DNA from: Amphiscolops sp. MND2022 | Taxonomy: Eukaryota | Reading direction: 5' to 3' | Assembly: GCA_964187785.1 (NCBI GenBank) | Contig: OZ076409.1 | Span: forward strand, 2,108,001-2,172,000 | Length of the DNA: 64,000 nt | The notes under the pieces: generated by a model | Told to the model about the DNA's origin: nothing | Databases searched by the model: none | Seen by the model: the letters and a program-made list of their open reading frames with translations, nothing else | Shown here: piece after piece, positions 8,232-40,100 of the stretch | Layout: every line of letters begins with the position of its first letter | Numbering within the stretch: the stretch's first letter is position 1 | Made by a program: the position numbers and the translations under genes

Positions 8232-8246
8232 TGGCGCAGTAGCAAG
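8232..8246 (+). promoter_or_regulatory. Primer-binding site, probably tRNA-Ser
   Basis: TGGCGCAGTAGCAAG directly after the LTR; complementary to a tRNA 3' end ...CUGCG-CCA. Confidence 0.65.
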
Positions 8247-8311
8247 ATATTATTTTATCAAACCTTCTTACTAAAACACGAAACATTTTTACCAACCAAC
8301 AAATATCAAAA

Positions 8312-9125
8312 ATGGCCGTGGCAACAAAGATACAACTATCATACCTAGAAGATACCGGACTCGACGGGAAGAAAATATTTACACCAAAAGAATGGACCGA
8401 GAGATTTCGACACTACATAAAAAGAATCCACAATATAGATATCAAACCGATATTAACCGATGATACGGTACCTACCGGTGACCCATGGGACACAAAAGAA
8501 CCGAAAATCAGACAAGATTTCATCTGGGGCCCCGGACCGTCGGCAATTGAAATCATCACGAAAGGAGAATTTAACACGGACCCTGACACAATCAAAACCG
8601 ACAAGTTAATTCAACTATTCCGGGAATACTACATGCCCAAAAGAAACACATACCACAGCCGTGGAGATTTCTTCTGGGCCAAGCAAGAAGAAAATGAAAC
8701 ACCCGAGGAACACTGGAAAAAGCTGATAACACTAGAAAAAACATGCGATTTCAAAAACATCAAACAAGAAGACCTACTCATATCGAAATTTATCACAAGC
8801 ATAACAGACAAAAAACTTCGGGAAAAACTGATCCGTGAAAAAACCCTCAACCTGGAAACCACCATAGAACTCATCAAACAAGACAGCTATGACCGCCGAC
8901 ATAAACAATCAACCATGCCACCCGCACTGGCGAAAGACAAAAAAAAAAACAAGAACCGATTCAAACAATCCAAACAAAACAACCCCGAGAACAACCAAAA
9001 CAAAAGAAAAACAACTGTGGATTCTGCGGACAACAAAATTGGACACCCCAACACAATTGCCCGGCTAAAACGGTAAAATGCAATAACTGTCAGAAAACAG
9101 GACACTTCGCCGGGGTATGCCGCAC
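8312..9125 (+). pseudogene. gag: Gag with two CCHC-type zinc knuckles (frameshift near the A-run at ~8940)
   Basis: ORF 8312-9076; shifted frame gives CGFCGQQNWTPQHNC and CNNCQKTGHFAGVC. Confidence 0.85.
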
Positions 9126-9165
9126 CAAACCAAACAAAACAAAAAAAATCAACTACCTGGAAGAC

Positions 9166-12100
9166 ATGACCTCCGAGGAAGACAACGAAAACAGCGAATC
9201 CGAAGAAATACTCCAAATTACACGAATCAACAAAATAACACCGGACAATAACGACCACTACGGTGTTGAAATAAAAATAAATCGGAAAAACCAAAAGTTC
9301 ATCATCGACACCGGTTCTCCGGTATCCATCATGTCCAAAAACCCCACACTGTACAACCCAGAGAATATCCAACCACTAAAAGAGAGATACCAAGATGAAA
9401 ACAAAAACGAAATCACAGTTCTGGGGAAAGTATGGGTAGACAACGAATACAACGGCGAACACACCAAATTACCACTCCTAATTACAAAGAGAACCGATAT
9501 CACACCCCTATTGGGAGTAAATTGGTTAAAACAACTGCCAATCACCATCAACAAAAACTCATTGGACAACAACACCGACCAAGTAGAAACAACAAAGACA
9601 CACACGAAATTCAAGAAACTATTCGAAACAAACCACACTATCAAGAATGCGGAGGTGAAAATACAGATAAAACCGGGGTGTTACCCAATACAACAAAAAG
9701 CACGACCAATACCGTACCATCTACAAGACGACGTAAAAAATGAATTAGACCGATTAATGAAATCCGGACATTTCAATGATTAGAAACAATCGAAGAAGAC
9801 TGTTTCGTATCCCCCGTTGTAATTACGGTAAAAAAAAGGACAAAGCGGTCAAAATTGCTCTTGATGCACGGAAACTCAACGACAGTTGCATAAAGAAAAG
9901 ACCGCACATGCCAAATATGAACGAACTACTAAACCAAATCTCTTCCGAACTATCAAAAAACGAGCTAGACCCAATCTGGATATCAGTCATAGAGTTGGAC
10001 TATGCTTACGGAAATATTAAACTATCACCGGAAACAAGCAAACATTGTAATTTTGCCATTACGGGAGAGAAAGTCAACGGATACTACCGATTTCTAAAGG
10101 GTTTTTACGGACCAGCCGACATACTCACTATTTTCCAGGAGAAAATAGACCGAACCCTCGGCCACCAAATTACAGTGTGGCTGGACGATATAATAATTGT
10201 GACACGCGGAACAAAGGAACAACACACACAAAAATTAGAATCAGTTCTAACAAAACTGGAAAACGACGGCTATAAGGCCAGTAAAAAGAAGTCAAAATTC
10301 TACCAAAAAGAATCGGTATGACTGGGACATACCATATCACAAGACGGAATCAGACCGAACAAAGAAAAAACGGATGCAATCAACAAACTGAACCCACCGA
10401 CAAACACAAAAACCCTAAAATTATTTTTTGGGAGCAATACAAATGTTTGCGAAATCCATACCGAATCTATCCGAAAAGACGGACAATATGAGACAATTGC
10501 TGAAAAAAGGAGTAAAATGGGAGTGGACAGAAGAACGAAACGCAGACTTCAACAACCTGAAAAAAGAATTGACAACACAACCATGCCTAGCACATTACAA
10601 CGGCAACAAAGAAAATATTGTCACAACCGACGCATGTGAAACCGGATTAGGCAAAGCGCTATTGCAACGTCAAAACAACGGCGAACTGAAAGCAATCGTA
10701 TATGCTAGCCGCTACCTTAACGACGCAGAGAAAAAATACTCCGTCGGTGAATTAGAACTACTAGCCGTAGTCTGGGGCCTTGAACGGTTTCAATTTCACC
10801 TATACGGAAAACAGGTTCATTTATTCTCCGACCACCAGGCTTTGGAACTACTGTTAAAGAGAAAAAAGACCAACAAACAATACAGTGCCCGACTAACACG
10901 GTGGTTAGACAGACTAAAATACACCGCCGGAAAGGAAATCCAATTCACTGATTTCATTAGCTGTAACCCAACGGAAACTGCCGAACCGGAAGAAAACTAC
11001 GAAAAAGAATTTGTCTTCAACGCCTTCGCGCAACTAGCTACGGTAAACGGCAGAATTGGACGGATTTTCGACAAATCAGAAAACAGCAACACGGCAAACA
11101 TGCATGATACGCGCACGCGGACTGGTACGCGCTACAGCAAAACAAACACAAACCATTCCAATTTGACCGCTAATCAGAATAACAACACCATTCACGACAA
11201 TCGCAAAACTCACATTGAACAACAACAACCGTCAAATTCCAGACCGATTTCCTTGAAACGATAAACTCAAATACCACTGGGGAGCCGATGATGAAATGAT
11301 GAAGATAATCAACAGAAGAGACATTTCACCGGAGACACAAGAACTAGTAGAGAGAGGAATCGAACTAACACGACCGGGCCACATGCGACACCATTGGCGC
11401 AAGAAACTCGAGAGAGAAATACTCCTCCCAAGACGACCGGACGATGTGGACAGAAAAGAAATCAAACGCATCGACATCCGCCTAAGAAGGAAAGAAGAAA
11501 ACCGAGTCACACACATCGGGGGCGGCTACTTCAAAAACTTTGGAGACGAAATCCCACAAGCATCCGGCACATCATCGAAAATCAACATGGAAACCATAAA
11601 TACACTCAAGCCTGCACCAGACACCGAATCCACGGTTTCCTCATCACCAGAAGAACCGGTAATAACGGAAGAACCAGGGTCTTACCCAGCAATCCCCTTT
11701 CAAGATTACCGTGAAGTCCCGATTGAAGAGATAGTTGTACATTATGTACGTATCAACAAGGTGATCGAGACAAAAGCCCCCAGAAACCGACAACAGGAAG
11801 GTAACATCAGAGCCGCAGAACTCGATTTTATGTTTGACCTGGAAAAACTAATCAAGGAAACGGCAGCAGACCCAGACCTAATCGATGTTCAGTGTTGCAT
11901 CGAGGACAATAATACCCACGCCATCCCAGACGACTACAAACAAGTAGCAAAGAAGCTGACCCACCGCTGGGGAAAAACAATGGTGGACGACCGAATTTTT
12001 TTTCCCAAGAGTCTACGTTACGAAGCACTCAACGCATTACACTTCGGCCATCCAGGAATGAATAAAATGTGCAACGATGCAGTTATTTTCTGGTGGCCAA

Positions 12101-12704
12101 ACATTAGAGCAGACATCAAGAAAAAAACCAAAACCTGCTCCGCATGCCTGAATGCCGGTAAGATATTAAAAACCCAACTACCTAGTACCGAAAAATCAAA
12201 ACTTGAACCGCCCAAACACCCAGGCGAAGAAATCCAAATAGATTTTACGGGAAATTTGAACAGCAAACATTTCGACTCCTCCCCTTTTATCTTAGTAGCC
12301 GTAGATAAAAATAGCCGTTGGCTGGTAGCGAAAATTTGTAAAAACACCAACCACGATACAGTAATATCATTCCAACGGAAAACATAAACGTATACGGAGT
12401 ACCGAAGACTATTAAATCGGACAACGGCAGCGCTTTCATCTCGAAAGAGTATGAAAGCTTTCGCAAAGAATATAATATAATCCCTAAATACGGGACGCCA
12501 AACTTGCATACTGGCACGGGATTGGTTGAAAGAACCATCCAATCATTGAAGAACCTAACAGAAACAAACTTAGAAGAGACGCAGAATTTACGCGAGAGCT
12601 TAAATAAAGCTCTATATGTCCTCCGTTTCGCCACACACTCTGAAATAAAAAAAAACCCGTTGGAACTACACTTCGGGCGAGAACCCGGAACAAAACTAAC
12701 CTGA
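9166..12704 (+). pseudogene. pol: Pol (protease, RT, RNase H, integrase), disrupted by stops and frameshifts
   Basis: IIDTGSPVS; LDARKLN and WLDDII; TTDACETGLG and ELELLAVVWGLERF; HFGHPG...CSAC, QIDFTG, SDNGSAF, GLVERT. Confidence 0.92.
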
Positions 12705-13733
12705 AAAATGCTATTTCAGTTAATTCCAAGGACCTATCAGTCTACATCACCCGCAATTCGGCCGGCGAGATTACCGACCACCTGGTGATGTCGAAGAAGA
12801 AGACAAGCGACCCGAAATACCGGAGGGGGATGACTTTCACCCAAAAACAGAAACCGTCAAATACGGTAATTAAAGAAAAAATACTAACTACCCGTTTACT
12901 TTTTTCGAAAAAACACATACAAAATGCTCACTTGGAAGCAAATTCAAACACAAACCAATAATTGCGGTCTCGGGGACCAAACATACGGTAACCACGGACA
13001 AGAACAAAATCCCACATAGGAAGCTAATATCTAACCCGATACCCTTTCAGGCTACAACAACCCCGACAAAAAGAATCAACACCAGACTGACAACAACGGC
13101 CGAAAAACCAACATGCTCAAAGACGGTGGAAAACGCCTGCCTATACCGTAGAAAAGAAGCACCGAAACCGGAGAACACAGAGAGCAGCGCAGACTGGCTG
13201 AAGAGGAAAGACCAACCACGCAATGAAAGAGGCCAGTTCACAAGTCCCGACAAGTCGGTGGGAAAATCGATGGACCTGGATTTGAGCATGGTATCCGACG
13301 ACGAATTCCAATGCAATAATTCTAGCGAAGGAAAACCCGTCCTTGCCAATATAGACGATGAACTGCAATTGCTACCCATGGAAACTAACCTAACCCCAGA
13401 AACAGGAATAAAAACGAATCCATTATCAAATGAACCACAACAAACGGTGAGAAAGTCGAAAAAAATACCCAACGCAAGACAAACCGAAAAATTAGGCGGT
13501 ATCCCATATTCCACAAATAACAATAAAAGAAAAATAATTAATAGTTATATGTTACAGGAAAACCAAACCAGCCAACCGAGTCAACAGCAAATTGAAAAGA
13601 GAAGCAACCGTAAAATACGGACGAGCAACCGTGAAATACGGAAAACAGTAGAGCACAAAAACTTCAACCGATTAATTCGGAACCGCCATCAATTACTACC
13701 ACCGGAAACCGAGTCCACCCGGAGGAGGGGGAA

Positions 13734-13940
13734 TGTGGAATGTAGAGGTCACAGACTGAACTACTTTAGACAGAGAGTTGTTTAAACAAATTTGATAACA
13801 AAACTCTAATTTCTGTCACATTTATGTTACTATATTACATTACCTAGATCTCATTACATTTGGATATATTGATACAAGATAGTTGAAAGAAATCTCTTTG
13901 CCACCAACATTGTTTTATAGTAAACCAAGAGATGTTAACA
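13734..13940 (+). repeat. 3' LTR
   Basis: Direct repeat of 8026-8231 preceded by a polypurine tract. Confidence 0.95.
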
Positions 13941-21824: not shown

Positions 21825-22089
21825 ATCAGAAATTTCATCATCTTCGTTTTCCCTTTCCAATTCCCTACAAAATGGAAATTTCTTCCTCAAAATGACAAAT
21901 ATTGAGGAGAAAACAGTAACTCTGTTCGACTCCAACGTTTGTATATATTGTATTGTAAAGTATATATTGTTTGAGTATAGTAAGATGCTTTCCGAGCATA
22001 TAACGCAATTTCGGAAGAAACCGTTTCGTCAATGGGAAGGGGAAAACGGGAGAAAATAAGGAATCAGAAGAATTGGTGGATTGGAAGAA

Positions 22090-22230
22090 TCAGAGATAAG
22101 AGACGACTGAGTTTGAGCGACAGCTGCTCATTGGCTGCTGCTGCTGAGGCGTTTCGGACGATGACCTTTCGGCGACCAGTGAGTTGGTGTTGGAGTTCTC
22201 GTGTTGGGTGCTCACTTCGCCGACTTCGAC
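22090..22230 (-). CDS. fry: furry terminal coding exon
   Basis: TCTTTCAG acceptor, phase 0, VEVGEVST...SVVSYL*. Confidence 0.7.
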   Translation of the reverse strand, partial: VEVGEVSTQHENSNTNSLVAERSSSETPQQQQPMSSCRSNSVVSYL

Positions 22231-25200
22231 CTGAAAGACACACAACAACACCAGTTAATATATCACATGAAACCCCCCCCCCCCCCCTCAAAAATGCAGC
22301 GAAGGCGAGGAGGCAGTTTTTGTTTTTCAGTTCCAACTTTCAGACGAAATGTCAAACGTGAGTAGTTAAGATTTCGGCCGGCCTTTCAACGGGGGGGGTC
22401 CTCGGTTTTCACGGGGTGGGTCCTTGCTCTGAAATTTTAGGACCTATCCCTAAAAGGAAGGGGTCCTTCCAAATTGGTGTTCGGAATTGATTCGGCTTTT
22501 GACTACGAAAGTAAATTATTGGTCGGATTCTTTTTGTATTCGTTTTTGGAATCGGATTTTTGCGAAAGTACATGTAAAAGCGTAGACATTCTTGTTTATT
22601 CTTTGAATGTCTGAAATTTGGAAAGTACTAACCTTGAAATTTTGTTGTAATTGAATTGTAAAGCTGGATTGACTAATACTGCTAAAACTTTCTTGTAAAT
22701 AAAGGCAGTGGTATTTCCAACTTTCTTATCTGTATGTACGCTTTATATGCGTTTCTCCAAATGTAGTGGTGGCGGTGTTCTTATTTCTACCTGGAAATTA
22801 TCACTTGAAATAGTTGTTTTCCACGAAAATATTTCGAAAATATGTGAAATTATAAAGTTCATGTAGGAAAAGCATAGACATTCTTACTATTTGCTTGAAT
22901 GTCTTAAATGTTTGCAAGAACTAACCTTGACATTTTGGTGTAAGTCGAATCTGAGCGGTGGTGGAATAACTAACACTTTCAAGTTCGAACAAGCTGTACA
23001 AAACTTTCCAAACATGGTATCAACTATTGAAAGGTATTATTCCTTATTTGCAACGGTGGTTAGCTTGGAGGAATGTTAATATTACAATCAATGTCAGCAA
23101 GTGTTGTTTGGTAGTTGGAAAGAGCTCTACTTGACTGAAATACTGGCTGTAAAATTTTCTTCAATTCCTTCCAAATTTAGCAAAGGTCTAATTTTGATGT
23201 TTCACCAAAACGGTGTTACTTCTTTTCTTCGCCTTAATTGCAACTGGTATTTCTCATTGTGAAACACTTGTTAAAAGGAAGCATTTGCGAACATTCACCA
23301 GTTTATGGGTAAATACGATTTTACTTTACGATATTGGTATTACTAATTGTCATTTTTCAAGCAAAGAATTCTATAAAAATGGTACTAAATTTTGTCATCA
23401 AAGTCCGTAGCTGAAATCAATGAATCATACTTCAAATATGTTGAAAACTGGCAGTTTCTAAGGTAAGTGTGATTTCTTTTGAAGTTATATCAACAATGAA
23501 AAAAAGGTTAGATCATTTTTCAAACCAAAACCAAATAAATACAAAACCTGCATTATCAACAAAATTGTATCAAGTCATTAGTTTTTGTTGAACAACTGCA
23601 TAGTATACTTGATCAACCCATATTCGCTCTGCATTTTTGTTGTTAGATCGAAGCATAGGTCCCGTATTGCGTTTTGATATCGATCAACGGCATCTCCGTC
23701 AACATAATACTGTAACGGAGAGACTATGCTCGGAGAATTGAACCGTGGTATGACAAAAATCCATTTGTCCTTGATAGTTGGTAGACGGAGTGAAAATTCA
23801 GTTTGTTCCGACAAAACTACCTTCCAAAGACAGACATTGCATTTAACCATTTCTTGAAAATATTTTATGTAGAAGTCCGGGGACCCACATAAGAAAACTA
23901 TATAAAACCAGAAACAAATGGTAACCAGTTTAATGTTTTTATGAAAGGAACTAGGAAAATTGCTAATGTTTCATTCCGGTTGTATTTTTTACTGAAACCG
24001 TTGTAAATAATCATAGTGGGAAAATTTCAAGCTTGTTAACCTCAATCCTTGCTCAACGAGTGTTGTTTCGATCTGATTTTTTCCTGCTCCAAGAGTTGTT
24101 GGTTTTACATTTATAGCTTCCATTGCTCCTTGCACAATAGTCAATTGATCATTTTTCATATGAGAACCAAACATTTTGGTGTTATAGTCATTGAATTTGC
24201 TCTTTTGTGATTTTTTTTTGGTTCTAATTCCAAAGGTTAAGTGATTTGAATGAAGAAATGAAAGAACCGAGTGAATTGTTTTTTTTAGTAAAGTTTCTTT
24301 GAATCTCTTCTTTGTCAAAATTCTCCTTGAATGAATATCAATGTTTCGCTCACGCCCTGGGGAAAAGCTTACCTTCAAACTCTGGATATACTGAATTACT
24401 TGTATATTGTCTTTTATGGTAGTCCAGCCGCCAAGTTTTCCTGGGAAAATTTACACACCTTTATTCAGCTAGCCTCTTTCAATTGTAGTTACCTGATTAA
24501 TCATTTCAACCCTCGATTATTTAGGGTCTGAGTCATTTTGAGTTTTGTTCAATCAATCCTCCTTTAAAGAAGGGAAATGCTATTTTCCTTTGAAAAAAAT
24601 GAAAATTTTAGGAGACCTCCGTTTTCAAAATTCATTTTTCCAAAATCGTCTTGCGCATCTACACACCAATTTTGAGCTCGATCGGACCAGCCGTTTTCGA
24701 GAAAAAATGACCTTTTTTGCTAAAAATCGACCAATTTGAAAAATGTGAATCGGATCAATTATCTTGACATTGGAGGTTGCCAGAGTCCAACGGACGGTAC
24801 CAATCGATTCGGCGCACTCTTTACTGCAAAAAGGTGTTATTTTTAAGGTTTCATCTTTTTTATTTCTTGAAAAATGATCCATTTTTTCATGAAAAAGTGT
24901 CAAAAAGTTGTTTTAAAAATTGTCCATTTTCTCGTAAACTACGCGACTTTTGTTATTCACTCTTATAGTCAAGACTTGTGAAATTTTCCAAAGTTGACTC
25001 TTTGAGAATGTTAATTTCACACCAAAACGTTTCTACTTTACATTGTTTTTCCTCTCTTTGAGGGGAGGGCCTTGGTAATTTTCTTTGAAAAAATGAATAT
25101 TTTATGGACCCTCCCTTTTCAAAATTCATTTTTCCAAAATCGTCTCGCGCATCTACACACCAATTTTGAGCTCGATCGGACCAGCCGTTTTCGAGAAAAA

Positions 25201-28089
25201 TGACCTTTTTTGCTAAAAATCGACCATTTTGAAAAATGTAAATCGGATCAATTATCTTGACATTGGAGGTTGCCAGAGTCCAACGGACGGTACCAATCGA
25301 TTCGGCGCACTCTTTACTGCAAAAAGGTGTTATTTTTAAGATTCCATCTTTTTTATTTCTTGAAAAATGATCCATTTTTTCATGAAAAAGTGACAAAAAG
25401 TTGTTTTAAAAATTGTCCATTTTCTCGTAAACTACGCGACTTTTGTTATTCACTCCTATAGTCAAGACATGTGTAATTTTCCAAAGTTGACTCTTTGAGA
25501 ATGTTAATTTCACACCAAAACGTTTCTACTTTACATTGTTTTTCCTCTCTTTGAGGGGAGGGCCTTGGCAATTTTCTTTGAAAAAATGAATATTTTATGG
25601 ACCCTCCCTTTTCAAAATTCATTTTTCCAAAATCGTCTCGCGCATCTACACACCAATTTTGAGCTCGATCGGACCAGCCGTTTTCGAGAAAAATGACCTT
25701 TTTTGCTAAAAATCGACCATTTTGAAAAATGTTAATCGGGTCATATATCTCGACATTGGAGGTTGCCAGAGTCCAACGGACGGTACCAATCGATTCGGCG
25801 CACTCTTTACTGCAAAAAGGTGTTATTTTTAAGATTCCATCTTTTTTATTTCTTGAAAAATGATCCATTTTTTCATGAAAAAGTGACAAAAAGTTGTTTT
25901 AAAAATTGTCCATTTTCTCGTAAACTACGCGACTTTTGTTATTCACTCCTATAGTCAAGACTTGTGTAATTTTCCAAAGTTGACTCTTTGAGAATGTTAA
26001 TTTCACACCAAAACGTTTCTACTTTACATTGTTTTCCCTCTCTTTGAGGGGAGGGCCTTGGCAATTTTCTTTGAAAAAATGAATATTTTATGGACCCTCC
26101 CTTTTCAAAATTCATTTTTCCAAAATCGTCTCGCGCATCTACACACCAATTTTGAGCTCGATCGGACCAGCCGTTTTCGAGAAAAATGACCTTTTTTGCT
26201 AAAAATCGACCATTTTGAAAAATGTTAATCGGGTCAATTATCTCGACATTGGAGGTTGTCAGAGTCCAACGGACGGTACCAATCGATTCGGCGCGCTCTT
26301 TACTGTAAAAAGGTGTTATTTTTAAGGTTCCATCTTTTTTATTTCTTGAAAAATGATCCATTTTTTCATGAAAAAGTAACAAAAAGTTGTTTTAAAAATT
26401 GTCCATTTTCTCGTAAACTACGCAACTTTTGTTATTCACTCCTATAGTCAAGACTTGTGAAATTTTCCAAAGTTGACTCTTTGAGAATGTTAATTTCACA
26501 CCAAAACGTTTCTACTTTACATTGTTTTTCCTCTCTTTGAGGGGAGGGCCTTGGCAATTTTCTTTGAAAAAATGAATATTTTATGGACCCTCCCTTTTCA
26601 AAATTCATTTTTCCAAAATCGTCTCGCGCATCTACACACCAATTTTGAGCTCGATCGGACCAGCCGTTTTCGAGAAAAATGACCTTTTTTGCTAAAAATC
26701 GACCATTTTGAAAAATGTAAATCGGATCAATTATCTTGACATTGGAGGTTGCCAGAGTCCAACGGACGGTACCAATCGATTCGGCGCACTCTTTACTGCA
26801 AAAAGGTGTTATTTTTAAGGTTTCATCTTTTTTATTTCTTGAAAAATGATCCATTTTTTCATGAAAAAGTGTCAAAAAGTTGTTTGAAAAATTGTCCATT
26901 TTCTCGTAAACTACGCGACTTTTGTTATTCACTCCTATAGTCAAGACTTGTTTAATTTTCCAAAGTTGACTCTTTGAGAATGTTAAGTTCACACCAAAAC
27001 GTTTCTACTTTACATTGTTTTTCCTCTCTTTGAGGGGAGGGCCTTGGCAATTTTCTTTGAAAAAATGAATATTTTATGGACCCCCCCTTTTCAAAATTCA
27101 TTTTTCCAAAATCGTCTCGCGCATCTACACACCAATTTTGAGCTCGATCGGACCAGCCGTTTTCGAGAAAAATGACCTTTTTTGCTAAAAATCGACCATT
27201 TTGAAAAATGTTAATCGGGTCAATTATCTCGACATTGGAGGTTGCCAGAGTCCAACGGACGGTACCAATCGATTCGGCGCACTCTTTACTGCAAAAAGGT
27301 GTTATTTTTAAGGTTTCATCATTTTTATTTCTTGAAAAATGATCCATTTTTTCATGAAAAAGTGGCAAAAAGTTGTTTTAAAAATTGTCCATTTTCTCGT
27401 AAACTACGCGACTTTTGTTATTCACTCCTATAGTCAAGACTTGTGAAATTTTCCAAAGTTGACTCTTTGAGAATGTTAATTTCACACCAAAACGTTTCTA
27501 CTTTACATTGTTTTTCCTCTCTTTGAGGGGAGGGCCTTGGCAATTTTCTTTGAAAAAATGAATATTTTATGGACCCCCCCCCCTTTTCAAAATTAATTTT
27601 TCCAAAATCGTCTCGCGCATCTACACAGCAATTTTGAGCTCGATCGGACCAGCCGTTTTTGAGAAAAATGACCTTTTTTGCTAAAAATCGACCATTTTGA
27701 AAAATGTAAATCGGGTCAATTATCTCGACATTGGAGGTTGCCAGAGTCCAACGGACGGTACCAATGGATTCGGCGCACTCTTTACTGCAAAAAGGTGTTA
27801 TTTTTAAGGTTCCATCATTTTACTTTCTTGAAGTATGATCAATTTTTTCATGAAAATGTGATAAAAAGTGGGTTTTAAAAAGTGTCCTTTTCTCATAAAC
27901 TACGTGCTTTTTGATATTTACTTTTATGGTCACGACTTATAAAAGTTTTAAGAGATATCAATAGGAGCGAAAGTAGAGGGAGAGAGAGAGGAGCTAAGAT
28001 AGAATGTGGAGCGAAGATAACGAAAGAGAAAGATAGGAGCGAAAATAGAAGAAGATAGTGAGAGGAAGAGGAGCGAAAAGAGAGAGACA

Positions 28090-28137
<48 letters not shown>

Positions 28138-31100
28138 AGGGACAAAGGAGCGTTGATAGATAGAGGAGTGAAGATAGAGAAAGAAGGAGATTTCTAAACC
28201 TGGATAAAGAGACTTTCTCAATTTGATTACGATGGTTGAAATCTTCGAAGGTTCGAAGCAACTGCAAGTTTAAAAGATAAATGTTCAGAAAGGCCTTCAC
28301 TCTTATTGTTGGAAAAATAGTCATGACTCTGCTCTGACTCTTCATTATTTGTATTGGTTCTAATAAACACCAATTCAATTTTAGTCTCCAATTGAATCTA
28401 GTAGTATGAAAAAAAGTTAACACGAACCACTTTTTGCTGTTTTATTTTACCTCGAAAATGACTGGGAAAGTCAAACCATACGGTCGGTTTGAGTTCAAAT
28501 TTTTCTTCGTTGTCACTCTGCTTCATTTCATCGTCCGAAACAACAAATTTCTTTTCATCCAGAAATAAAGTTGAATTATCCAAAGTAATTGGTACAATGG
28601 TTTTCGGTGAAGAATGAGGTATCTTGTAATGCCCGAATGCTAACGTTTCATTTCCCTCTGCAATGTAACGGGGGGATTTACATTGAGTTACATTAACTTA
28701 AGTAGTTAAGATTTCAGCCGGCCTTTCAACGGGGGGGGTCCTCGGTTTTCACGGGGTGGGTCCTTGCTCTGAAATTTTAGGACCTATCCCTAAAAGGAAG
28801 GGGTCCTTCCAAATTGGTGTTCGGAATTGATTCGGCTTTTGACTGCGAAAGTAAATTATTGGTCGGATTCTTTTTGTATTCGTTTTTTGGATTCTTTTTG
28901 TATTCGTTTTTTGGAATCGGATTTTTGCGAAAGTACATGTAAAAGCGTAGACACTCTTGTTTATTCTTTGAATGCCTGAAAGTTTGGAAAGTACTAACCT
29001 TGAAATTTTGTTGTAATTGAATTGTAAAGCTGGATTGACTAATACTGGTACAACTTTCTTGTAAATAAAGGGAGTGGTATTTCCAACTTTCTTATCTGTA
29101 TGAACACTTAATATTATTAGGAATAGTAATATGCGTTCCTCCAAATGTAGTGGTAGCGGTGTTCTTATTTCTACCTGTAAATTATCTTAACTTCCCAACA
29201 AATTCGTTTTGAATCTACATGTTGTTGCTAACCCCTGACCTACCCAAGTTAAATTTAATATAACTGTAAACCACCATTCTTCGTTTCAACTCTTGTTTGA
29301 AAACAAAATGAATTTCACAAATTCAAGCTTTATTATGCTGTTAACGTTATACAAAGTAAAATTAGTGAATGATATTACTGTAATTCATTATCAATATAAA
29401 ATTTGACTTTTTTCTGAGGAGGGGGACCACGGGTGGGAACTTCCACTGCTTCACAGTCTAAAAATACATTTGGCTGGGTATTGGGTAAGTCTTCTTCGAA
29501 ATCAGACAACTCTGTTAGGTCAATAACGTCTGGTAATTCACTTTCTTCTATTGCATCTTGATTAAGTCCAGGGTCGGGTGGGGAAAATAAAGCTGGTTGG
29601 TTGGAGTTTGACTGTATCGGTGACTGAATAAAGTCCTCCTCCTCCTCGTCCCCCCAATCGCAATCCGCCCCAATTTCTCTGAATATTACGTCGTCTCGCA
29701 AAGAATAATGTCCAAAAGGTAAGGTATCAACGCCGTTTGGCATTATATATCTTTTATCGTCAAAACAGCTGAGAGAAATTTTTGTTGTCTGCAAGGTAAA
29801 CAGATTATGTCTTTCACTATTTATTGTGTAGTTTAATGTTCTAAGTAGTGTTTCTTTTTCGAGAATTCGATAAAATACAGAGTGTTGTAGGTTCTTTTGT
29901 GCATGTTTGGTGGTTCCTTTGGCAGAAATTTTTTGTTGATCACCCATCGCGATTGAATACAATTTTGATTTTAGTGCAACAATGCTGTGTATGATTTTAC
30001 CACCAACTTCGTCTTTGAATTTCAAAGTTTCCAACTTTTGATGTTTGGAATATAGTTGATTATCTTCTTTATAGTTTGAAAAGTCAAACTCTGGGTGCAC
30101 TTGTTCGTTTTCTTTGAGGTCAGCGTATATGTCTTCCGATTCGATTTCATAAATTAGGGAATCTGTATCGGAGTAGAGCACTAATGTTCGGAAGTTTGGT
30201 TTCATGTACATGTAATGAAACCAGTACATATGTCGTTTAGATAAATCCAAGATGGTAGCGCCGACTATCGTTGGCTTGTCCCAGTAAATTTTGCGCTGTG
30301 CAAACGTTATGGCAGCCAACTGGTTGTTGAAAATCTTGAATGTTTTCATCCACATTTTGCTTGTTTGCTTTTGCAACTCATCTTGCGTGCGGACAATCTC
30401 AATGGACAATCGTTTTCTTTTACTTTCCATGGTTTTACGTGAAGCAGCGTCTAACTGGGATATAGAAAGTCTTCATCGTTGTGACCTACCAATGCTACCT
30501 ATACAAATCAAACGCATCCTGTGTAGAGACGACTGCGCAATGGTTCCATTAACGGAGAATCAAATGGGTTTCTTCAGGGAGGTTGATTCACTTGAAGATT
30601 TTTGGGGAGTTGAACATGATCCTGCATCTCCATCACCACAAGTCTCCCCAGAAGTTCTGGTCTGCACAACAGAAGACGAAGAGACGAAAGATGGTGATGA
30701 TCTAACAGTGAGTCCTCAAATTGTGACGCCTGATAGCACTCGAACTGCAGCGTTGGAGCCACCACCAGTGAAGAAGGCAAAACAGCAGGAAAAGAAACTT
30801 TTGAAGCGATTCTAACCAATCTAACAAATACTGTCAAAAGCTTACTAACCAATCTAACCAAATACTGTCAAAAGCTTACGTCGAAATTTGAAGACATTTT
30901 ATGCAGAGTTCTGTTTAAAGTAGCCTAGGAAATCGTTTTTGAGAGTTGAGTTTGCGAAAAATTTACAAGACTTTTCCACAGGAGTAAATTTCAAAAGTCG
31001 CGTAGTTTACGAGATTTTGAACATTTTTTAAACTCAATTTTTGATCATTTTCGGTCAAAAAAACAAACATTTCTCAACATTGAAAAAAGTTTCGGAGCCA

Positions 31101-34100
31101 AAATTTGGCACAAAACTAGAAAAGAGGACGCTGAAAACGCTGGTGAAAACCGCAGGGCGCTAGCTTTACCGAGTGTTGAGATTTTGACCAAAAAATGCAA
31201 TTTTTAAAAATGCCATTTTTTGACAAAAAATGTCAATTTTCTCAAAAACTGTTGGTCGGATCGGTCTGAAAATTTGCAGGTAGGTGCGCAAGACGATTTC
31301 GAAAAAATGAAATTTGAAAAAGGGGGGTGCATGGAAATTTCGATTTTTTTGAAAAATGGAAAAATTCACTTTGCACTCCTCTATTATAGGCGAAATTTGA
31401 TTGTTCAAGCAGTCAAAGTTGTTTAGAAACCAAATTTGAGAGTTGAGTTTGCGAAAAATTTACAAGACTTTTCCACAGGAGTAAATTTCAAAAGTCGCGT
31501 AGTTTACGAGATTTTGAACATTTTTTAAACTCAATTTTTGATCATTTTTGGTCAAAAAAACAAACATTTCTCAACATTGAAAAAAGTTTCGGAGCCAAAA
31601 TTTGGCACACAACTAGAAAAGAGGACGCTGAAAACGCTGGTGAAAACCGCAGAGCGCTAGCTTTACCGAGTGTTGAGATTTTGACCAAAAAATGCATTTT
31701 TTCAAAATGCCATTTTTTGACAAAAAATGTCAATTTTCTCAAAAACTGTTGGTCGGATCGGTCTGAAAATTTGCAGGTAGGTGCGCAAGACGATTTTGAA
31801 AAAATGAAATTCGAAAAAGGGGGTGCATGGAAAATTTGACCTTCTTGCAAAAATGAAAAAAATTCCCGTTCCTCCCCCCTATAATGCCCAGCAGTCAATA
31901 TACGGAGACAAAAAAAAAGTTAGTCGAATATGCATACAATTTTCCTGGAAAAAACATGGCGCCTGGAATACCGTAAAAGGTGGTCGAATCAAAATTTAAA
32001 GAAATCCAGTCTCTCGGGATACCATAATTGGTTATCGCCTTGTTAAAAGTCGAACATGCAAACAATTTTCTTGGTAAAAATGGCACCTGGGATACCATAA
32101 ATAGTGATCGAATCAGAATTCAAAGAATTCAGTCGCTCGGGATACCATAAATGGTAATCACCTCCTTAATTGATCGGAGCGAAGTGCAAAAACATTTTCT
32201 CAATCTCAACATTGAGGAACACTCGACTTTCCAAAATGGGTGTGGAGTGTGATCTTTGTCTAAAAACATATAGTTCTTTGAGAAATTTGCGTCGGCACAA
32301 GCAAAATATACACAACACACAACCCAAAGTTCAACCTTTTGCTTGCTCCGATTGTGATTTTCAAAACACTTCTCTGGTTACGATGAAACAACATTTTTTA
32401 CAAAAACATGGACATATAATAGTAAATCATTGCCTTTATTGCAACATAGTTTACGGTGAAGCTATGAAATACTCGAATCATCTTGAGCATGATCATGGTT
32501 TACCAACAATATTTACACCCCGCGAAAATGACAACATCGAAAGAATGACCGGTTATCAACAGGTGGAAAAAGCCTTTTGGGGATCATTGGAAACGTATCA
32601 ACTCAAGCGAAGGATCACATCAATTGATTTATTCGAACTACTTTGTAAGGAAAAAAATCAAATACAAAACCTTATTAGAGAAAAATGTCGCAATGGACCC
32701 AAGAAATTTCAATTAACAACTGAATTGAAGTTAGTTAAACCGAAAGTTGATGATGACTCTCAAGAGACAATCACAATTTATACCAACACAAAGTTGCAAC
32801 CAGTTTACTTTTATGGGATCACAGACAACGACTATTATCAATTGATAGAACAACTTACTTCAGCTTTATTTACTTTTGCATCCCAAGGAAGTGGGTGGAT
32901 TTTGTCCGAAATTAAAAACCTTTTTGTTAAATTTACATCCTATTCTCCCATTCGGGGTAGCTCTTACATCGCACTTCCAAATAAACTTCAAGGTTGTAGG
33001 TCACTACTCAATATTCGGAACATTGAAGATGAGAATTGCTTTATATATTGTTATACGGCCGCTTACCACTTGCACACAGACATACCATTGGTTGAAACAA
33101 GTTCGTGGCGCTGCAAAACAAACCCAGGCACTTATAATCCTACATATAATCCTCTGGCAAAAAAGCATGCAGGCAACTTTCGGATGCCAATGCCGTTTCA
33201 TGAACTTGAACGATTCGAAAAACTCAACAAAGTCCAAGTCAATGTGTTTATATTGGAGAAGAAAGATTTGTTACCTCTCAGAGTCTCTAAATTCCCCAGT
33301 GACTTTATCATGGATCTTTTATTGTTGTCAGAAGGAGGTTCTCATCACTACGTACTGATTACTGATTTGAAACATTTTGTAAACTTTTTGAAAAATAAAC
33401 AAAGTAGATCGAGGGATGAAATTTGCAGAAACTGTTTTCATATTTGTAATTCAATCGGGAGTTTCGAAAGACACAAGCTCAACTGTTACGAAAACGAGGC
33501 CGCGGCGATCATATTACCCGATGAGCATAAAAACATACATCAATTCAAAAATACAAGAGCAGTTTGGTTTGTTCCACTGGTTATTTACCTTGATACTGAA
33601 GCGCTCCTAGTACCTTTATCTACATGCGCTCCTTCACCCAGTATTAGCAGTCAAGTAAAGTTGGAAAAACATGTGCCTTGTGGTTATGCTTTTGTAATTG
33701 TAGAACATGGAAATGATAAAGTTTTGTCTTACAGAATCATGCGAGGTCCCGATTGCTTGGACGATTTAATAAAAGAATTGGAAAAATTGGCAACAGACAT
33801 TTATCATAGAAAACAAAGTCACCGAATTTACAAGGGCAAGCCTTCAACGCACAAAGACACTGTAAATGATTGTTGGATTTGTAAAAAACCTTTCACGAAT
33901 GACGAGCAGAAAGTGTTGGACCATTGTCATTACAGTGGTACATTCCTAGGGTGGGCACATTCAGAATGTAATCTACAAAGGAAGTCAATAAACTTCACCC
34001 CCGTGATAGCACACAACATGGCTGGATATGATATACACCACATTTGTTCGGCAATCAACAATTGTAATCCAAAGAACAAGTTTTCAGTTATTCCTACAAC

Positions 34101-37100
34101 TGACGAAAAGTACATTTCCTTCACATTTTCTGTGTGGGTAAACTCATATACTGACAAGAATGGAATGACAAAAAATGTATATGAAGACATGCGATTCTTG
34201 GACTCTTTCAAGTTCATGCCCCAGTCACTAGATAAACTGGCGGGTTTCTTACCACAGGATAAATTCATTTATCTGGAGAGTCAATTCAATACATACAAAA
34301 CACCGTCGCAAATTGACTTGCTGAAAAGGAAAGGTGTTTATCCCTATTCATACATGGACAGTTTCGATAAATTTGCCGAGGAAAAGCTTCCCCCAAAAGA
34401 GTTTTGGAAAAACACTCTCGCAGGGGGTGAAGTCACAATTAGTGATCAGGATTTACAACATGCTAGTCTTGTATACCAAGAGTTTGATTGCAAAACACTA
34501 GGTCACTATCACGATTTATATTTACACACCGATGTTTTGATTTTGGCCTCGGTATTCGAAGAGTTTAGAAAAGTGTGTTATGCAACTTACGGACTGGATT
34601 GTGCTCATTTTTATACTGCGTCAAATTTGTCCGGTGAAGCCTTCCTTAAAGTGTGCAACGCAGATATCGAATTACTAACTAATCGAGAACACCTTGAAGT
34701 TGCTGAAAACCTAATCCGCGGAGGAATTTCTTCCGTGTTTGCAAAACGCAAATTTGAAGCAAATAACAAATATCTACCAACATACAACTCTTCACAGAAG
34801 CAAACATTTGGGCTGTTTATTGATGCAAACAACTTGTATGGAGGAATCATGGAAAAGTTCCCCTTGCCTTTAAAAAACTTTGTATTGAAAAGAGAAGGCG
34901 AAGTTGACCTACAAGAAATACTAAATACTCCAAATGACTCACCAGTTGGATATGTATTGGAAGTTGACTTGCATTATCCTGATCATTTGCACGATTTACA
35001 CACTGATTTCCCTTTGGCTCCTACGAAGGAAACAATTAATTTTTTTTGGCTCGGTGAATATCAAACACGATTGCTGGAAATGAGTGGAACAAAGACCTTT
35101 TCAACAAAAAACAAAAAGTTGATCCAAACACTCTACGACAAAACCAATTATACTATACATTACATGACATTGAAATTATACTGTGAACTGGGGTTACAAG
35201 TTACCAAAGTACATAGAGTGTTGCAATTTGAACAGTCAAAATGGCTCCAGCCATATATACAGTTAAACACAATGAAACGAAAAGCGTCTACAAACAAGTT
35301 TGAAGAAAACTTTTTCAAACTAATGAGCAACTCTGCTTTTGGTAAAACCATGGAAAGTAAAAGAAAACGATTGTCCATTGAGATTGTCCGCACGCAAGAT
35401 GAGTTGCAAAAGCAAACAAGCAAAATGTGGATGAAAACATTCAAGATTTTCAACAACCAGTTGGCTGCCATAACGTTTGCACAGCGCAAAATTTACTGGG
35501 ACAAGCCAACGATAGTCGGCGCTACCATCTTGGATTTATCTAAACGACATATGTACTGGTTTCATTACATGTACATGAAACCAAACTTCCGAACATTAGT
35601 GCTCTACTCCGATACAGATTCCCTAATTTATGAAATCGAATCGGAAGACATATACGCTGACCTCAAAGAAAACGAACAAGTGCACCCAGAGTTTGACTTT
35701 TCAAACTATAAAGAAGATAATCAACTATATTCCAAACATCAAAAGTTGGAAACTTTGAAATTCAAAGACGAAGTTGGTGGTAAAATCATACACAGCATTG
35801 TTGCACTAAAATCAAAATTGTATTCAATCGCGATGGGTGATCAACAAAAAATTTCTGCCAAAGGAACCACCAAACATGCACAAAAGAACCTACAACACTC
35901 TGTATTTTATCGAATTCTCGAAAAAGAAACACTACTTAGAACATTAAACTACACAATAAATAGTGAAAGACATAATCTGTTTACCTTGCAGACAACAAAA
36001 ATTTCTCTCAGCTGTTTTGACGATAAAAGATATATAATGCCAAACGGCGTTGATACCTTACCTTTTGGACATTATTCTTTGCGAGACGACGTAATATTCA
36101 GAGAAATTGGGGCGGATTGCGATTGGGGGGACGAGGAGGAGGAGGACTTTATTCAGTCACCGATACAGTCAAACTCCAACCAACCAGCTTTATTTTCCCC
36201 ACCCGACCCTGGACTTGATCAAGATGCAATAGAAGAAAGTGAATTACCAGACGTTATTGACCTAACAGAGTTGTCTGATTTCGAAGAAGACTTACCCAAT
36301 ACCCAGCCAAATGTATTTTTAGACTGTGAAGCAGTGGAAGTTCCCACCCGTGGTCCCCCTCCTCAGAAAAAAGTCAAATTTTATATTGATAATGAATTAC
36401 AGTAATATCATTCACTAATTTTACTTTGTATAACGTTAACAGCATAATAAAGCTTGAATTTGTGAAATTCATTTTGTTTTCAAACAAGAGTTGAAACGAA
36501 GAATGGTGGTTTACAGTTATATTAAATTTAACTTGGGTAGGTCAGGGGTTAGCAACAACATGTAGATTCAAAACGAATTTGTTGGGAAGTTAAGATAATT
36601 TACAGGTAGAAATAAGAACACCGCTACCACTACATTTGGAGGAACGCATATTACTATTCCTAATAATATTAAGTGTTCATACAGATAAGAAAGTTGGAAA
36701 TACCACTCCCTTTATTTACAAGAAAGTTGTACCAGTATTAGTCAATCCAGCTTTACAATTCAATTACAACAAAATTTCAAGGTTAGTACTTTCCAAACTT
36801 TCAGGCATTCAAAGAATAAACAAGAGTGTCTACGCTTTTACATGTACTTTCGCAAAAATCCGATTCCAAAAACGAATACAAAAAGAATCCAAAAAACGAA
36901 TACAAAAAGAATCCGACCAATAATTTACTTTCGCAGTCAAAAGCCGAATCAATTCCGAACACCAATTTGGAAGGACCCCTTCCTTTTAGGGATAGGTCCT
37001 AAAATTTCAGAGCAAGGACCCACCCCGTGAAAACCGAGGACCCCCCCCCCGTTGAAAGGCCGGCTGAAATCTTTACTACTAACGTGAAAGACCGTTACAG

Positions 37101-40100
37101 CAGCAATTTTATACGTTATTTCGCTTAAAGCACTTAAACCCAGGCCTGTTGAATTAATAGTTAAATAAATATATCACAACTGAAAATCAACGAAACATAC
37201 AAGTTATGTTTAAAATTTGGTGTATTTCTGAAAAACACATTTTCTACGTATTGTTCAATCAATACACATTTCTCAAGATGTGCATGGTTTGTTTCATCAA
37301 TTTTTTCACTACAAAACTTTCACGAGGTCCCGAGAAAAACTACTAGGTGTACCAAAAAACGGAACGCATAAAAATACTTCAGCTCTCAAAGTTTCAAATA
37401 TTTGTCAACAAATGTTTCAGAACAACTCTCAATTTTGCAATTCAGCTTGTCAGTCATCCAGCAAATAAGACAAGCTATGGATCAGAAACAAAGCCCCTAT
37501 CGCATTTTCCTAGACCTCAAAAAAGCTTTCGATACATTAGACCATGAGATTTTGCTGTCCAAATTAGAGTCTTTCGGTTTCCGCGGCAGAGTGCTAACGT
37601 TGTTGAAATCCTATCTAAACAATAGGAAACCATTTCTCTGAATGGATAGCTACAGATCATCTTGCCAGCCAGTGAAATGCGGTGTACCTCAAGGGTCTGT
37701 ACTCGGACCTTTATCGTTTCTGTTGTATATCAACGATCTTCCACGACATGCCAAGGCTTGTATTACTTTTGCCGACAATACGAAAATCTTTTACACTGAG
37801 AGCACCAGTTTGCAATAGTTGGCTGACATACTTGACAAGGTTGATGAATGGATACGAAGTAATAAACGGAAATGTAACCTCGATAAATCAACAGCTGTCT
37901 GCTTCGGCAAAAATACAGTGAACCATCAGATGGAAGATTTCAGATTAAACATCAAACATAAAGTATTTGGGTGTCATCATTGATGAGACACTTTCTTTCA
38001 AAGATCATATTTCGAAAGTGAAAATCAAAACTGCTATTTTGCGATTACAGTCTGGTGCACACGCCAACTGCTAATCAGCGATCAACTAATAATATACTAA
38101 ACGCTTCATGTCAAACCAATTACCCAATATGGGGTCCTCCTAATTGGTTGTACTCCCTATTCGGCACTGCAACCAATCATGGTTCTACAGAGGAGGCTCA
38201 TCAGAAGTATTTTCAAACTTCCGAAGTTTGCATCGGTGAAAGACTTATGATTGAGTACGAATTATCTTCGGTATATGAGCTCCATATTCATGAGCTTTTG
38301 AAGTTTTACTAGATTGCACACGAGAAGATCACTTGGTGGTAGCAGTAAACGATGTAATTAGGCAAATACAGGAACGAAGGTACAATTTCGGTCATGCGAA
38401 TCAGAAGGCTACTGTGCCTGTATCGCGCAATAAAAGTTTTGAACACTGCCTCTCGAAACGAATCCCGGCTTTGTTCAATGTGCTGCTCTCCTGGAGGGCA
38501 CTGCCTGATCTACAGTACATCTCCAAGCTCGATGCTGAAAAGCGCAATGCTCTATGTCATGACTTCTACAAGTGCTCCATAGGAAACGAGCAATTGATCC
38601 GTGTAGTGTTTGGTCTGGACTCATTCTGAAAGATATGATTTTTCAGTTTACCTGATGAAAAAATCCCGCGTTAGAGCTCGGAGGAGTCTACATTTATGCT
38701 CACCGTGAGCAGTGAAGACTCCTGGGCCAATAAAGTCGGGCATCAGGTGTGCAGAAGCGCTAAAACTATATCAACAAGGGTGTGAGATACGAGTTTTCAG
38801 TCATTTTATGCTTTCTTTCAGTACCCTAAACTTGTGGCTAACCGTTGACAACTTCAATTTGTGGAGCTAGTATTGGCAAAGCTATCAAGCCTACAGTGCT
38901 ATTCCCAAAAGTCAACAAAATATATTTTCAAGTTTTTTTTGGAAAGCTGGTTCTAGTTCTCTGTATTGAAATGTTCTATTTCTCTGAACTCTCTTTTTTG
39001 TGATTTGATTTTTGACTGCGAGAATGATGAGCTAGCAACCTGCTCTATGGAAAGCCTCCTACAAGCGGCTTTCTATTCTATTTGTATTCGTAATATGTAT
39101 GACCAAATGAATTAAATTATCATTATTATTATACTTTAACACCTTTTTTCCGAAGCCAAGAAACTTTCACACATCAAAAATGTGAACGTAATGACTGGTA
39201 AAAAAATCTAGCCTTTTCTGAAAGTTCGGATTATTCTTTGATAAATATTTGACTACGTAATGAGAGGATGATTGACAGAGAAAGTGAAAGATTATCAGTG
39301 CCTTGTTTACAAATATTATGATTTTGAAGAGTGAATATTTTGTGCATTTCGTTTTTTTTTTGTTTTACCTAGTAATCTTTGTAGGGTCTAAAACTTGTAA
39401 CAAAAAGCACCGACAAAAAGTAGGTTTGTTTCTATTTGAGGTCAAATTGTGCCGATGAGCTGATGAAAACTGACCTCATTGGACAGGGCACTGAGCTGGC
39501 CCCGTAATCGGGCATTGACCTCTGCCAGTCGATCTAGTTCGTCCATCCAGGCATTCTCGTCATGCAACGCCACACAGAAGAAAGCAGTCGAAGATGATGA
39601 TGTTGATGATGATGGTGATAACGAAGTTGAATTGTCCTCCACATCTTGAAAAGAAAAAACAAGTCGGCGTCATATCTAAGGCTCAAAAAAACTCGAAAAC
39701 GAAAAACACTTTTTCTACAACTGGACACAACAAAAGCTTTCAAAAAACTAAAAATTGAGTTAAAAATTTCCGAATTTTTTTCGGAATTTTTTTGAAGTTT
39801 CCGGTAAGTCGCATAGTGCCGAAAAATGTAAAAGCGGGGACGCTTTGGGATTTTTTGAACATCCATTCTGTTGCAAAATATCAAAAATTGATGGGAGGAA
39901 CAATAAATTCGGAAAAAATCAGTCTCACAGTGCCGAAAAAAGGAGGAAAGTCTCATAGTGTCGAAAAAAGTGGACCCTTCTGCTTTGGAATGGCTTTTTA
40001 TCTCATGTTAGAGGCTTTGGATGCGTTGAAAATGTACTATGTACATATGGTAAAAGTTTGTAAATGTGCATTAATGCACAAAAAGTGGACGTTACGCGTT

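Follow-up and report, generated by a model that had tools for sequence, protein, structure and literature searches.

Organisation of the element

The window (the whole 64,000-nucleotide stretch of DNA that was analysed) holds an element of 14,720 bp at positions 22361-37080. Its outer ends, AGTAGT at 22361 and ACTACT at 37080, lie directly inside two copies of the TSD AACGTG, which abut them at 22355-22360 and 37081-37086 as the sequence-only reading had claimed. The probability of finding this hexamer by chance is 2e-4 and that of a match between two random hexamers is 5e-4. The termini are of the Maverick/Polinton type, (AGT)2//(ACT)2 with TIRs, although the outer TIRs are imperfect, and the 6-bp TSD seen in the window sequence is also that of a Maverick/Polinton. 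The TSD and the two outer ends are undamaged, so that one molecule bearing these ends integrated here in a single event. The features of the locus are as follows.

22355..22360, no strand: left TSD, sequence AACGTG
22361..22802, plus: left TIR, begins AGTAGT and matches the right TIR imperfectly
22854..22943, plus: second copy of the TIR segment 22565-22650, 80% identical
22867..23410, plus: putative broken ORF in several short frames, doubtful; no family match
23578..23850, minus: ORF-A, 90 aa; the same sequence on 11 contigs, 11 sequences in its cluster
23989..24174, minus: ORF-B, 61 aa; the same sequence on 42 contigs, 16 sequences in its cluster
24330..24530, minus: leader-like motif similar to that found ahead of pPolB; it aligns with a score of 62, against a maximum of 54 in 200 shuffles
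24582..27938, no strand: tandem array of a 493-bp unit, 6.8 copies with 96% matches
28079..28134, no strand: (AG)n microsatellite
28398..28670, minus: frame in which 19 residues match the C-terminal motif of pPolB (own HMM, E 0.005)
28701..30438, minus: internal inverted copy of the right end, with AGTAGT at 28701, TIR to about 29186 and the 3' part of pPolB at 29375-30438
30439..30815, plus: remnant of gene X; the first 75 residues are lost and the rest is joined to the inverted piece of pPolB
30929..31885, no strand: 497-bp repeat, about 2 copies, 95% identical
31922..32169, plus: two 125-bp copies (82%) of the leader-like motif, upstream of pPolB
32236..36405, plus: intact protein-primed family B polymerase (pPolB), 1389 aa, C2H2 fingers at the N-terminus and an insert resembling endonuclease VII
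36594..37080, minus: right TIR, ends ACTACT
37081..37086, no strand: right TSD, sequence AACGTG

The pPolB frame is uninterrupted from 32170 to 36405 (1411 aa in all, 1389 from the methionine) and the ExoI, ExoII, ExoIII, PolA, PolB, PolC and KxY motifs were all located in it, so that its earlier description as intact holds. A total of 1,522 homologues were found, many with PF03175, and with these motifs the protein qualifies as a Maverick/Polinton polymerase (for the distinction between pPolB1 and pPolB2, see the accessible part of PMC10748475). With the protein itself as query, Pfam gave zinc-finger and endonuclease VII matches alone, PHROGs named the endonuclease VII insert as the sole part and a PDB sequence search matched the zinc fingers only. 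No match was found in viral contigs, searched for pPolB and separately for the TIR pattern, or in the prokaryote genomes searched. Spliceosomal introns are apparently present in sister pPolB families.

The outer TIRs measure 442 and 487 bp and are separated by 13 substitutions and by indels of 24, 18, 2 and 1 bp, a difference of about 3%. Much of the interior is tandem repeat, as had been noted before: the 493-bp unit occurs 6.8 times and the 497-bp unit twice, and the two arrays are about 67% identical in inverted orientation. Only 3.4 kb of the interior is free of repeats and pPolB, and the longest non-pPolB frames (175-190 aa) lie mostly within repeats. The statement that there is no credible long ORF is literally true, but it overlooks the multi-copy short ORFs A and B and the 5'-truncated gene X. 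ORF-A has five more clusters at 73-86%. Among interior frames not derived from pPolB, the highest codon-usage scores were those of X (7.8), A (5.7), B (5.5) and the frame at 28398 (4.5), where the 99th percentile of the flank is 5.2 and the score is weak support. The frame at 28398, located 30 bp from the internal terminus, is possibly a scrap of another pPolB, judging from its motif match; its exact 61-aa form gave no match in the protein collection.

The internal inverted end and its fusion to gene X

The element has three termini, the third being the AGTAGT at 28701. The polymerase duplicate reported earlier is indeed present on the minus strand, where it comprises the last ~355 codons of pPolB, but it is part of a whole inverted right end that starts at 28701. 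This internal copy of 1,738 bp differs from 35343-37080 by two substitutions and two homopolymer indels, and the divergence of the outer TIR pair is far above this. The second right end is joined exactly at its AGTAGT terminus, outside which the flanking hexamer is AACTTA and not AACGTG, the two agreeing at four of six bases. On its other side it is fused to truncated gene X at 30438/9, with an in-register AAGCAG found in both parents 3 bp away.

The missing upstream sequence of X is present in 13 of 15 sister X proteins, and the other two begin downstream and are uninformative. The fusion was seen in none of these 15 (the X cluster has 22 members, of which six others were not among them). The fusion ORF, 30402-30812, was found on one contig of 128,398 bp, the same contig as this pPolB, and its two alternative starts gave no match in the protein collection. 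At the protein level, the deleted layout was thus not found at several loci with TSDs of their own. The unit 28701-37080 does have long inverted ends with natural termini, but it has no own TSD (AACTTA against AACGTG) and no independent copy, being seen on one contig.

Gene X is a conserved gene of the family, and contigs with a call for it number only about two dozen. No sequence in the X alignment received a convincing Pfam assignment, and the ESM Atlas gave no match for X or ORF-A at a threshold of 0.9 or above. The structure model of X (pLDDT 76) had no structural match at E 0.001; its best rows, which are leads only, point to a Pur-alpha/PC4-like part in residues 1-70 (Foldseek E 0.078; VIA Z 4.4) and to an RWD-like match (Z 5.2).

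Search for core genes

Pfam gave nothing relevant on 48 interior ORFs. An HMM of 120 related integrases, together with tblastn using the same proteins, gave no matches inside the element, while the flank yielded E 0.005 in this search for an unrelated integrase of Ty3/gypsy type. ORFs for the ATPase, integrase, minor-capsid-like protein and a partial protease of related loci gave no tblastn match below E 0.07, the ATPase and minor-capsid queries being single ORFs of L002, a lineage 36% identical in pPolB. Hence the RVE integrase that an autonomous Maverick/Polinton carries in cis was not found, nor were a packaging ATPase and minor capsid in cis by the L002 tblastn queries and by Pfam on the 48 ORFs. 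The claim that integrase and ATPase are lacking, even as remnants, is upheld by Pfam, the integrase HMM and tblastn; the scope is narrower for the other two genes. No major capsid was found by Pfam, an absence judged on Pfam and on the 3.4 kb of available space. For the protease, Pfam was blank and the tblastn query was partial and protease-like only.

Age and integrases of the family

The pPolB cluster has 122 members, many of them 5'-short. The family is considered to be young because five long sister pPolBs are 99.1-99.7% identical and ORF-B is identical on 42 contigs. Two sister pPolBs each share a contig (6,506 and 14,248, matched on size) with an integrase. Dozens of young Maverick families are apparently present in the host lineage, and in some of them pPolB has breaks that resemble introns.

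From the tree, which holds 41 integrase clusters, six were examined on the basis of tree position and size, with 120 of 492 matches listed. One of them, P0314, has 58 members with an rve match, and one 323-aa form of it is identical on 21 contigs. P0314 shares contigs with X (444,336) and ORF-A (619,385), that is, 2 of the 15 listed, with contigs matched on size; the background P for this link is 0.005-0.07 across genome sizes, and unrelated elements may lie together on one contig. The five other clusters share no contig with family genes (0 of 73 distinct). By the same size matching, the left-arm genes (25 contigs) and right-arm genes (26 contigs) have no contig in common, where about 5-11 matches would be predicted if both arms usually lay on one contig (P ~1e-3 or less).

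Origin of the locus

We consider that the locus is probably a one-off copy with a rearranged interior, derived from a young Maverick/Polinton family in which the full-length members encode integrase. A second family copy, or a copy-back product, would have inserted inverted into a first, and a later deletion would have fused the inserted pPolB with the outer copy's gene X at the short homeology. The same deletion would have removed the block of integrase, ATPase, protease and capsid genes. Nested insertion with deletion, in this putative order, is probably the route. pPolB would have stayed intact through the youth of the copy and its own position beyond the deleted block, and not through selection as a satellite. 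Further movement of the locus now needs a helper, like that of any defective copy.

The suggestion that a core was deleted or replaced while pPolB was kept thus fits the data: X is cut at the junction of the inverted duplication, 13 of 15 sisters have the missing part and none has the fusion. That the sister lineage L002 encodes an ATPase, an integrase and a minor-capsid-like ORF also counts in favour, as do the contigs shared by family genes and integrases and the precedent of the C. elegans loci described below. On the other side, full-length members are deduced from proteins rather than DNA, the missing contig overlap between the arms would require putative contig breaks inside full-length copies, and the difference of ~3% between the outer TIRs is well above that between the internal copy and the right end. 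The sequence-only reading had set beforehand, as grounds against itself, a unique layout among otherwise complete members; at the protein level the layout is unique, but the completeness of the other members is unproven.

It is less likely, at a rather low probability, that the 8.4-kb unit 28701-37080 is a copy-back defective genome from protein-primed replication, which a helper integrase put into a sister copy. The unit would then be a putative pPolB-only linear replicon with 1.74-kb inverted ends.

The outer TIR divergence and the lack of contigs common to left-arm and right-arm genes are also what a chimera of two families would show. Here the left arm (ORF-A, ORF-B and the 493-bp array) would come from a sister element type with a near-identical TIR, and recombination, or the shared use of an end from each, would have linked it to the pPolB arm before the composite integrated as a unit. 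The 493-bp and 497-bp arrays are only 67% alike and the left arm ends in a putative scrap of a different pPolB (E 0.005), which would also suit such an origin. We nevertheless regard it as unlikely. The left TIR differs from the internal copy by 2 substitutions in its first 220 bp and 10 in the remainder (P 0.04), so that the differences grow inward from a near-identical tip, as would be expected for two ends of one family. Furthermore, cluster P0314 touches both arms, and contig breaks within long near-identical elements would also abolish the overlap.

The other possibility raised before, a core-less class of pPolB-bearing satellites that replicate themselves and borrow integrase and capsid in trans, is in our view improbable to a high degree. 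The 8.4-kb unit would be its copy-back mini-genome with 1.74-kb inverted ends, and the near-perfect long inverted ends, natural termini and intact pPolB would suit this, as would a junction homeology compatible with a template switch and the many 5'-short pPolB members set against X on about two dozen contigs only. However, the fusion ORF was found on one contig only, the unit lacks a TSD of its own, the short pPolB members may be frameshift fragments and gene X is broken rather than streamlined away. The layout shows no sign of amplification, and the lineage has intact young integrases that share contigs with the family.

An assembly artefact, in which copies of a high-copy repeat were collapsed or mis-joined, might be suspected from the ~100 near-identical copies and the short contig (128 kb), but it is very unlikely: the internal copy and the right end differ at two non-homopolymer sites, the coding site of the internal copy agrees with all six sister proteins covering it, and the junctions are sharp and the TSD perfect. 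Two independent neighbouring remnants, with a hexamer match due to chance or to target preference (hinted at, on two sites only, by the four of six bases shared by AACTTA and AACGTG), are scarcely credible given a chance match of 2-5e-4 and a left part without a closing TIR of its own.

Significance

As read here, the locus is of low importance because Mavericks are as a rule defective and integrase-free loci with pPolB and TIR have been published already. It does caution against taking a perfect TSD plus an open pPolB as proof of a satellite class when the family is very young. If the inverted right end did arise by copy-back, it would record the way in which Mavericks replicate outside the chromosome, as a fossil of defective-interfering Maverick DNA in the genome, and would be evidence for an extrachromosomal replication phase in an animal. 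To our knowledge, extrachromosomal Maverick replication has not been observed in animals. If the host lineage does hold dozens of young Maverick families, it would be a good place to seek active elements.

Comparison with known systems

In the literature searched, which was mostly without subscription papers and supplements, no core-less, trans-mobilised pPolB class was found. Copy-back defective genomes and terminal duplications in linear DNA replicons have one end duplicated inverted and the rest lost, whereas the unit here has no own TSD and no second copy and is known from DNA sequence alone.

The L002 Maverick (JAAUXT010002407.1) shares the zinc-finger N-terminal end and a similar C-terminal tail, and its pPolB was placed as sister to the clade of the window in a quick tree (SH-aLRT 100). 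Its pPolB is only 36% identical, however, and it encodes an ATPase, an integrase and a minor-capsid-like ORF, arranged in another order.

In the accessible parts of PMC8097293 and PMC4028283, vertebrate Maverick/Polinton TIRs range from 46 to 1,447 bp and 96% of vertebrate copies are defective; the (AGT)2//(ACT)2 end motif is as given in PMC8097293. As far as these parts describe animal Maverick/Polintons, the element shares with them its ends, a 6-bp TSD, a TIR length in range, a size of 14.7 kb and a motif-complete pPolB, but differs in its third internal terminus, its imperfect outer TIRs and its lack of integrase, ATPase, protease and capsid. The vertebrate fossils described there have a pPolB eroded by stops and frameshifts, whereas pPolB is unbroken here.

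In C. elegans, the accessible part of PMC11414722 gives ten loci with pPolB and TIR but without integrase, and loci, including eri-6/7, with pPolB-end remnants, several insertions at one place and rearrangement. In contrast to the remnants described there, the rearrangement here lies inside one TSD-bounded element in which the polymerase ORF is whole.

Termini and gene content of the element

The Maverick copy at 22361-37080 is 14,720 bp long, starts with AGTAGT and ends with ACTACT. The AACGTG direct repeat that the sequence-only reading placed on both outer flanks was confirmed, the chance of such a match being 2-5e-4, and the same end motifs with a 6-bp target-site duplication (TSD) are used in the definition of Mavericks in PMC8097293. 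The outer terminal inverted repeats (TIRs) agree at only 442 of 487 bp and differ by 13 substitutions as well as four indels. The outer ends and the TSD were set by one integration event.

The protein-primed family B polymerase (pPolB) named in that reading is indeed present at 32170-36405 with all Exo and Pol motifs, and also has zinc fingers at its N-terminus and an insert resembling endonuclease VII. The layout described there, lacking integrase, ATPase, protease and capsid genes, was likewise upheld. No integrase remnant was found in the element by HMM and tblastn (120 related integrases), ORFs of related loci used as queries, the protease one being partial, detected no trace of an ATPase, a minor capsid or a protease in it, and a Pfam search of 48 interior ORFs gave nothing relevant. 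The apparent absence of the major capsid was judged from the Pfam result and from the interior outside repeats and pPolB, which is only 3.4 kb.

The interior carries multi-copy short ORFs, namely ORF-A (90 aa, identical form on 11 contigs), ORF-B (61 aa, identical form on 42 contigs) and the gene remnant X.

Arrays and polymerase-like motif inside the element
24582-27938: 493-bp array, paralogous to the 497-bp array
28398-28670, minus strand: pPolB C-terminal-like motif, a 19-residue match (E 0.005) beside the internal terminus, at the left arm's inner edge
30929-31885: 497-bp array, paralogous to the 493-bp array

The two arrays are inverted paralogues, about 67% alike. In both arms the array precedes genes, and a leader-like motif, similar in the two cases, comes after it. 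A sister X protein (P0186) was observed to read into a similar array, and arrays of this type may be a lineage-wide feature. An exact match to the 28398-28670 frame was absent from the protein collection.

Internal terminus and the junction at gene X

A third terminus, overlooked previously, was found at 28701. The right end is duplicated there in inverted orientation (28701-30438), with an exact AGTAGT start, and the copy is separated from it by 2 substitutions and 2 homopolymer indels across 1,738 bp. Its outer flank is AACTTA and therefore no TSD is shared with the right end. Between the left TIR and this copy, the initial 220 bp contain 2 substitutions and the remainder 10. A second right end is joined precisely inside the element.

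Gene X, conserved and about 200 residues long, has 51 relatives at E up to 0.001 and belongs to a family with no Pfam name. At 30439-30815 it begins at residue 76, joined to the reverse strand of pPolB. The junction is damage, repair-like, and removed the start of X and all genes upstream. AAGCAG lies in register in both parents, 3 bp from the junction, which suggests that homeology guided the joining. The lost N-terminal domain (protein P0184) is modelled as a four-stranded sheet with a helix and gave weak Pur-alpha/PC4-like matches; it is perhaps a single-stranded DNA binding protein.

Among the 16 of 22 X cluster members examined, the upstream part is present in 13, another 2 begin downstream of it, and the last is the element's own; a point-changed copy could lie among the other six or could have been called differently. 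The junction-crossing ORF occurs on one contig of 128,398 bp, equal in size to that of the exact element pPolB. As far as protein calls go, the deleted layout is unique.

Origin of the locus

We consider the element to be probably a one-off deletion derivative of a Maverick. Of the two origins proposed from sequence, loss of the core with retention of pPolB is the one supported, by the truncation of X at the junction and by the fusion ORF on one contig. In the simplest route, another family copy would have inserted inverted into the outer copy, and a deletion would then have run from the pPolB of the inserted copy to X of the outer copy. The pPolB frame stayed open owing to the youth of the copy and to the position of the gene beyond the deleted part. 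A possible second route, with the same product, is a copy-back mini-genome that entered the outer copy, with later recombination of the direct right-arm repeats; both substitutions separating the internal copy from the right end are apparently private to the latter and so leave the two routes undivided.

One observation counts against the deletion reading. Matched by size, 25 contigs with left-arm genes and 26 with right-arm genes had none in common, where 5-11 shared ones would be expected for arms that mostly sit together on a single contig. Contig breaks inside full-length copies, at long 99%-identical repeats, are a plausible cause. Alternatively, the left arm may derive from a sister type of element, which would fit both the missing overlap and the 19-residue pPolB match at its inner edge. 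A satellite class mobilised in trans, the other proposed origin, is not supported, since among the protein calls the junction ORF is on one contig and the element does not qualify as part of an amplified non-autonomous family; nor does it qualify as an autonomous member.

Family, relatives and integrase

The pPolB cluster of the element has 122 members. Of fifteen compared, the six longest share 99.1-99.6% identity with the window's own pPolB, and for the shortest the figure falls as low as 81%. About 50 more pPolB clusters (41-55% identity) form one clade, to which the related locus L002 is sister in a quick tree without bootstrap. L002 encodes a packaging ATPase, an rve integrase and a minor-capsid-like ORF. 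Its integrase has 492 relatives, and among the 120 listed, two are on contigs sized as sister pPolB contigs (6,506 and 14,248, small sizes that can coincide).

Six integrase clusters were compared with the family. Cluster P0314 has 58 members, including a 323-aa form that recurs unchanged on 21 contigs. Of its contigs, 2 of 15 equal family contigs in size, one carrying X and the other ORF-A, for a background probability of 0.005-0.07 under assumed genomes of 2 to 0.5 Gb; the other five clusters shared none of 73 contigs with the family by size. By the same matching, X and pPolB share 3 contigs beyond the element's own, and ORF-A and ORF-B share 1. This is a young family, and a probably autonomous one.

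Together, about 50 clusters of pPolB and over 30 integrase clusters of several members each form one lineage. Many of them have tens to hundreds of members, which points to a large recent Maverick expansion. An HNH/NUMOD1 endonuclease ORF (L009:238-1152, minus strand) adjoins a distant pPolB relative.

Flanking sequence

Features outside the element
5153-5518, minus strand: zinc finger of the FLYWCH type (E 1e-8), which may come from a Mutator-like transposon
8243-13785: remnant of an LTR retrotransposon, frameshifted, in which protease, RT, RNase H and integrase are arranged as in Ty3/gypsy
22030-22235, 39490-39645, 53027-53344 and 60563-60937, minus strand: exon-like stretches, recognized by eye
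37372-38300: reverse transcriptase of a LINE, broken, on the right-hand side of the element (RVT_1, E 2e-8 and 7e-7)

The stretch at 60563-60937 gave a weak Furry C-terminal match (E 3e-4, below cut-off), and the element may lie inside an intron of a furry-like host gene.

Putative introns in sister polymerases

Among sister pPolB representatives (P0010-P0051), 20 of the 35 reaching the KxKxYS motif end four residues later. G, S or C stands at the break in 15 of these 20 and K, E, N or a stop follows in 13, the pattern of a read-through GT splice donor, which suggests an intron. P0030, another of these proteins, continues past this break with an insert some 20 residues long. The usual C-terminal motif is absent in only 2 of 65 more distant homologues. 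Furthermore, a clade of 7 breaks at a second site, with K followed by VS or VG. These protein sequences suggest two spliceosomal introns in Maverick polymerases, and the element's own pPolB has neither. Intact vertebrate elements are described in PMC8097293 as having no introns, and introners are reported in polinton-like viruses of dinoflagellates (PMC12166617). A search by title and abstract found no animal Maverick-intron case. The putative sister introns are possibly more interesting than the core-less element.

Comparison with known Mavericks

Among the papers listed in a literature search, none described a pPolB-only class mobilised in trans. Defective copies are reported in several sources, where 96% of vertebrate loci are defective (PMC8097293) and nine elements show concerted loss of capsid, protease and ATPase (PMC4028283). 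In C. elegans, PMC11414722 describes remnants from the pPolB end, a locus that received more than one insertion, and 10 loci where pPolB and TIR are present and integrase is not. Further background is found in PMC6431247, PMC12166617 and PMC10748475. The core-less layout is a real feature with an ordinary cause, and the element works like, and is, a defective Maverick.
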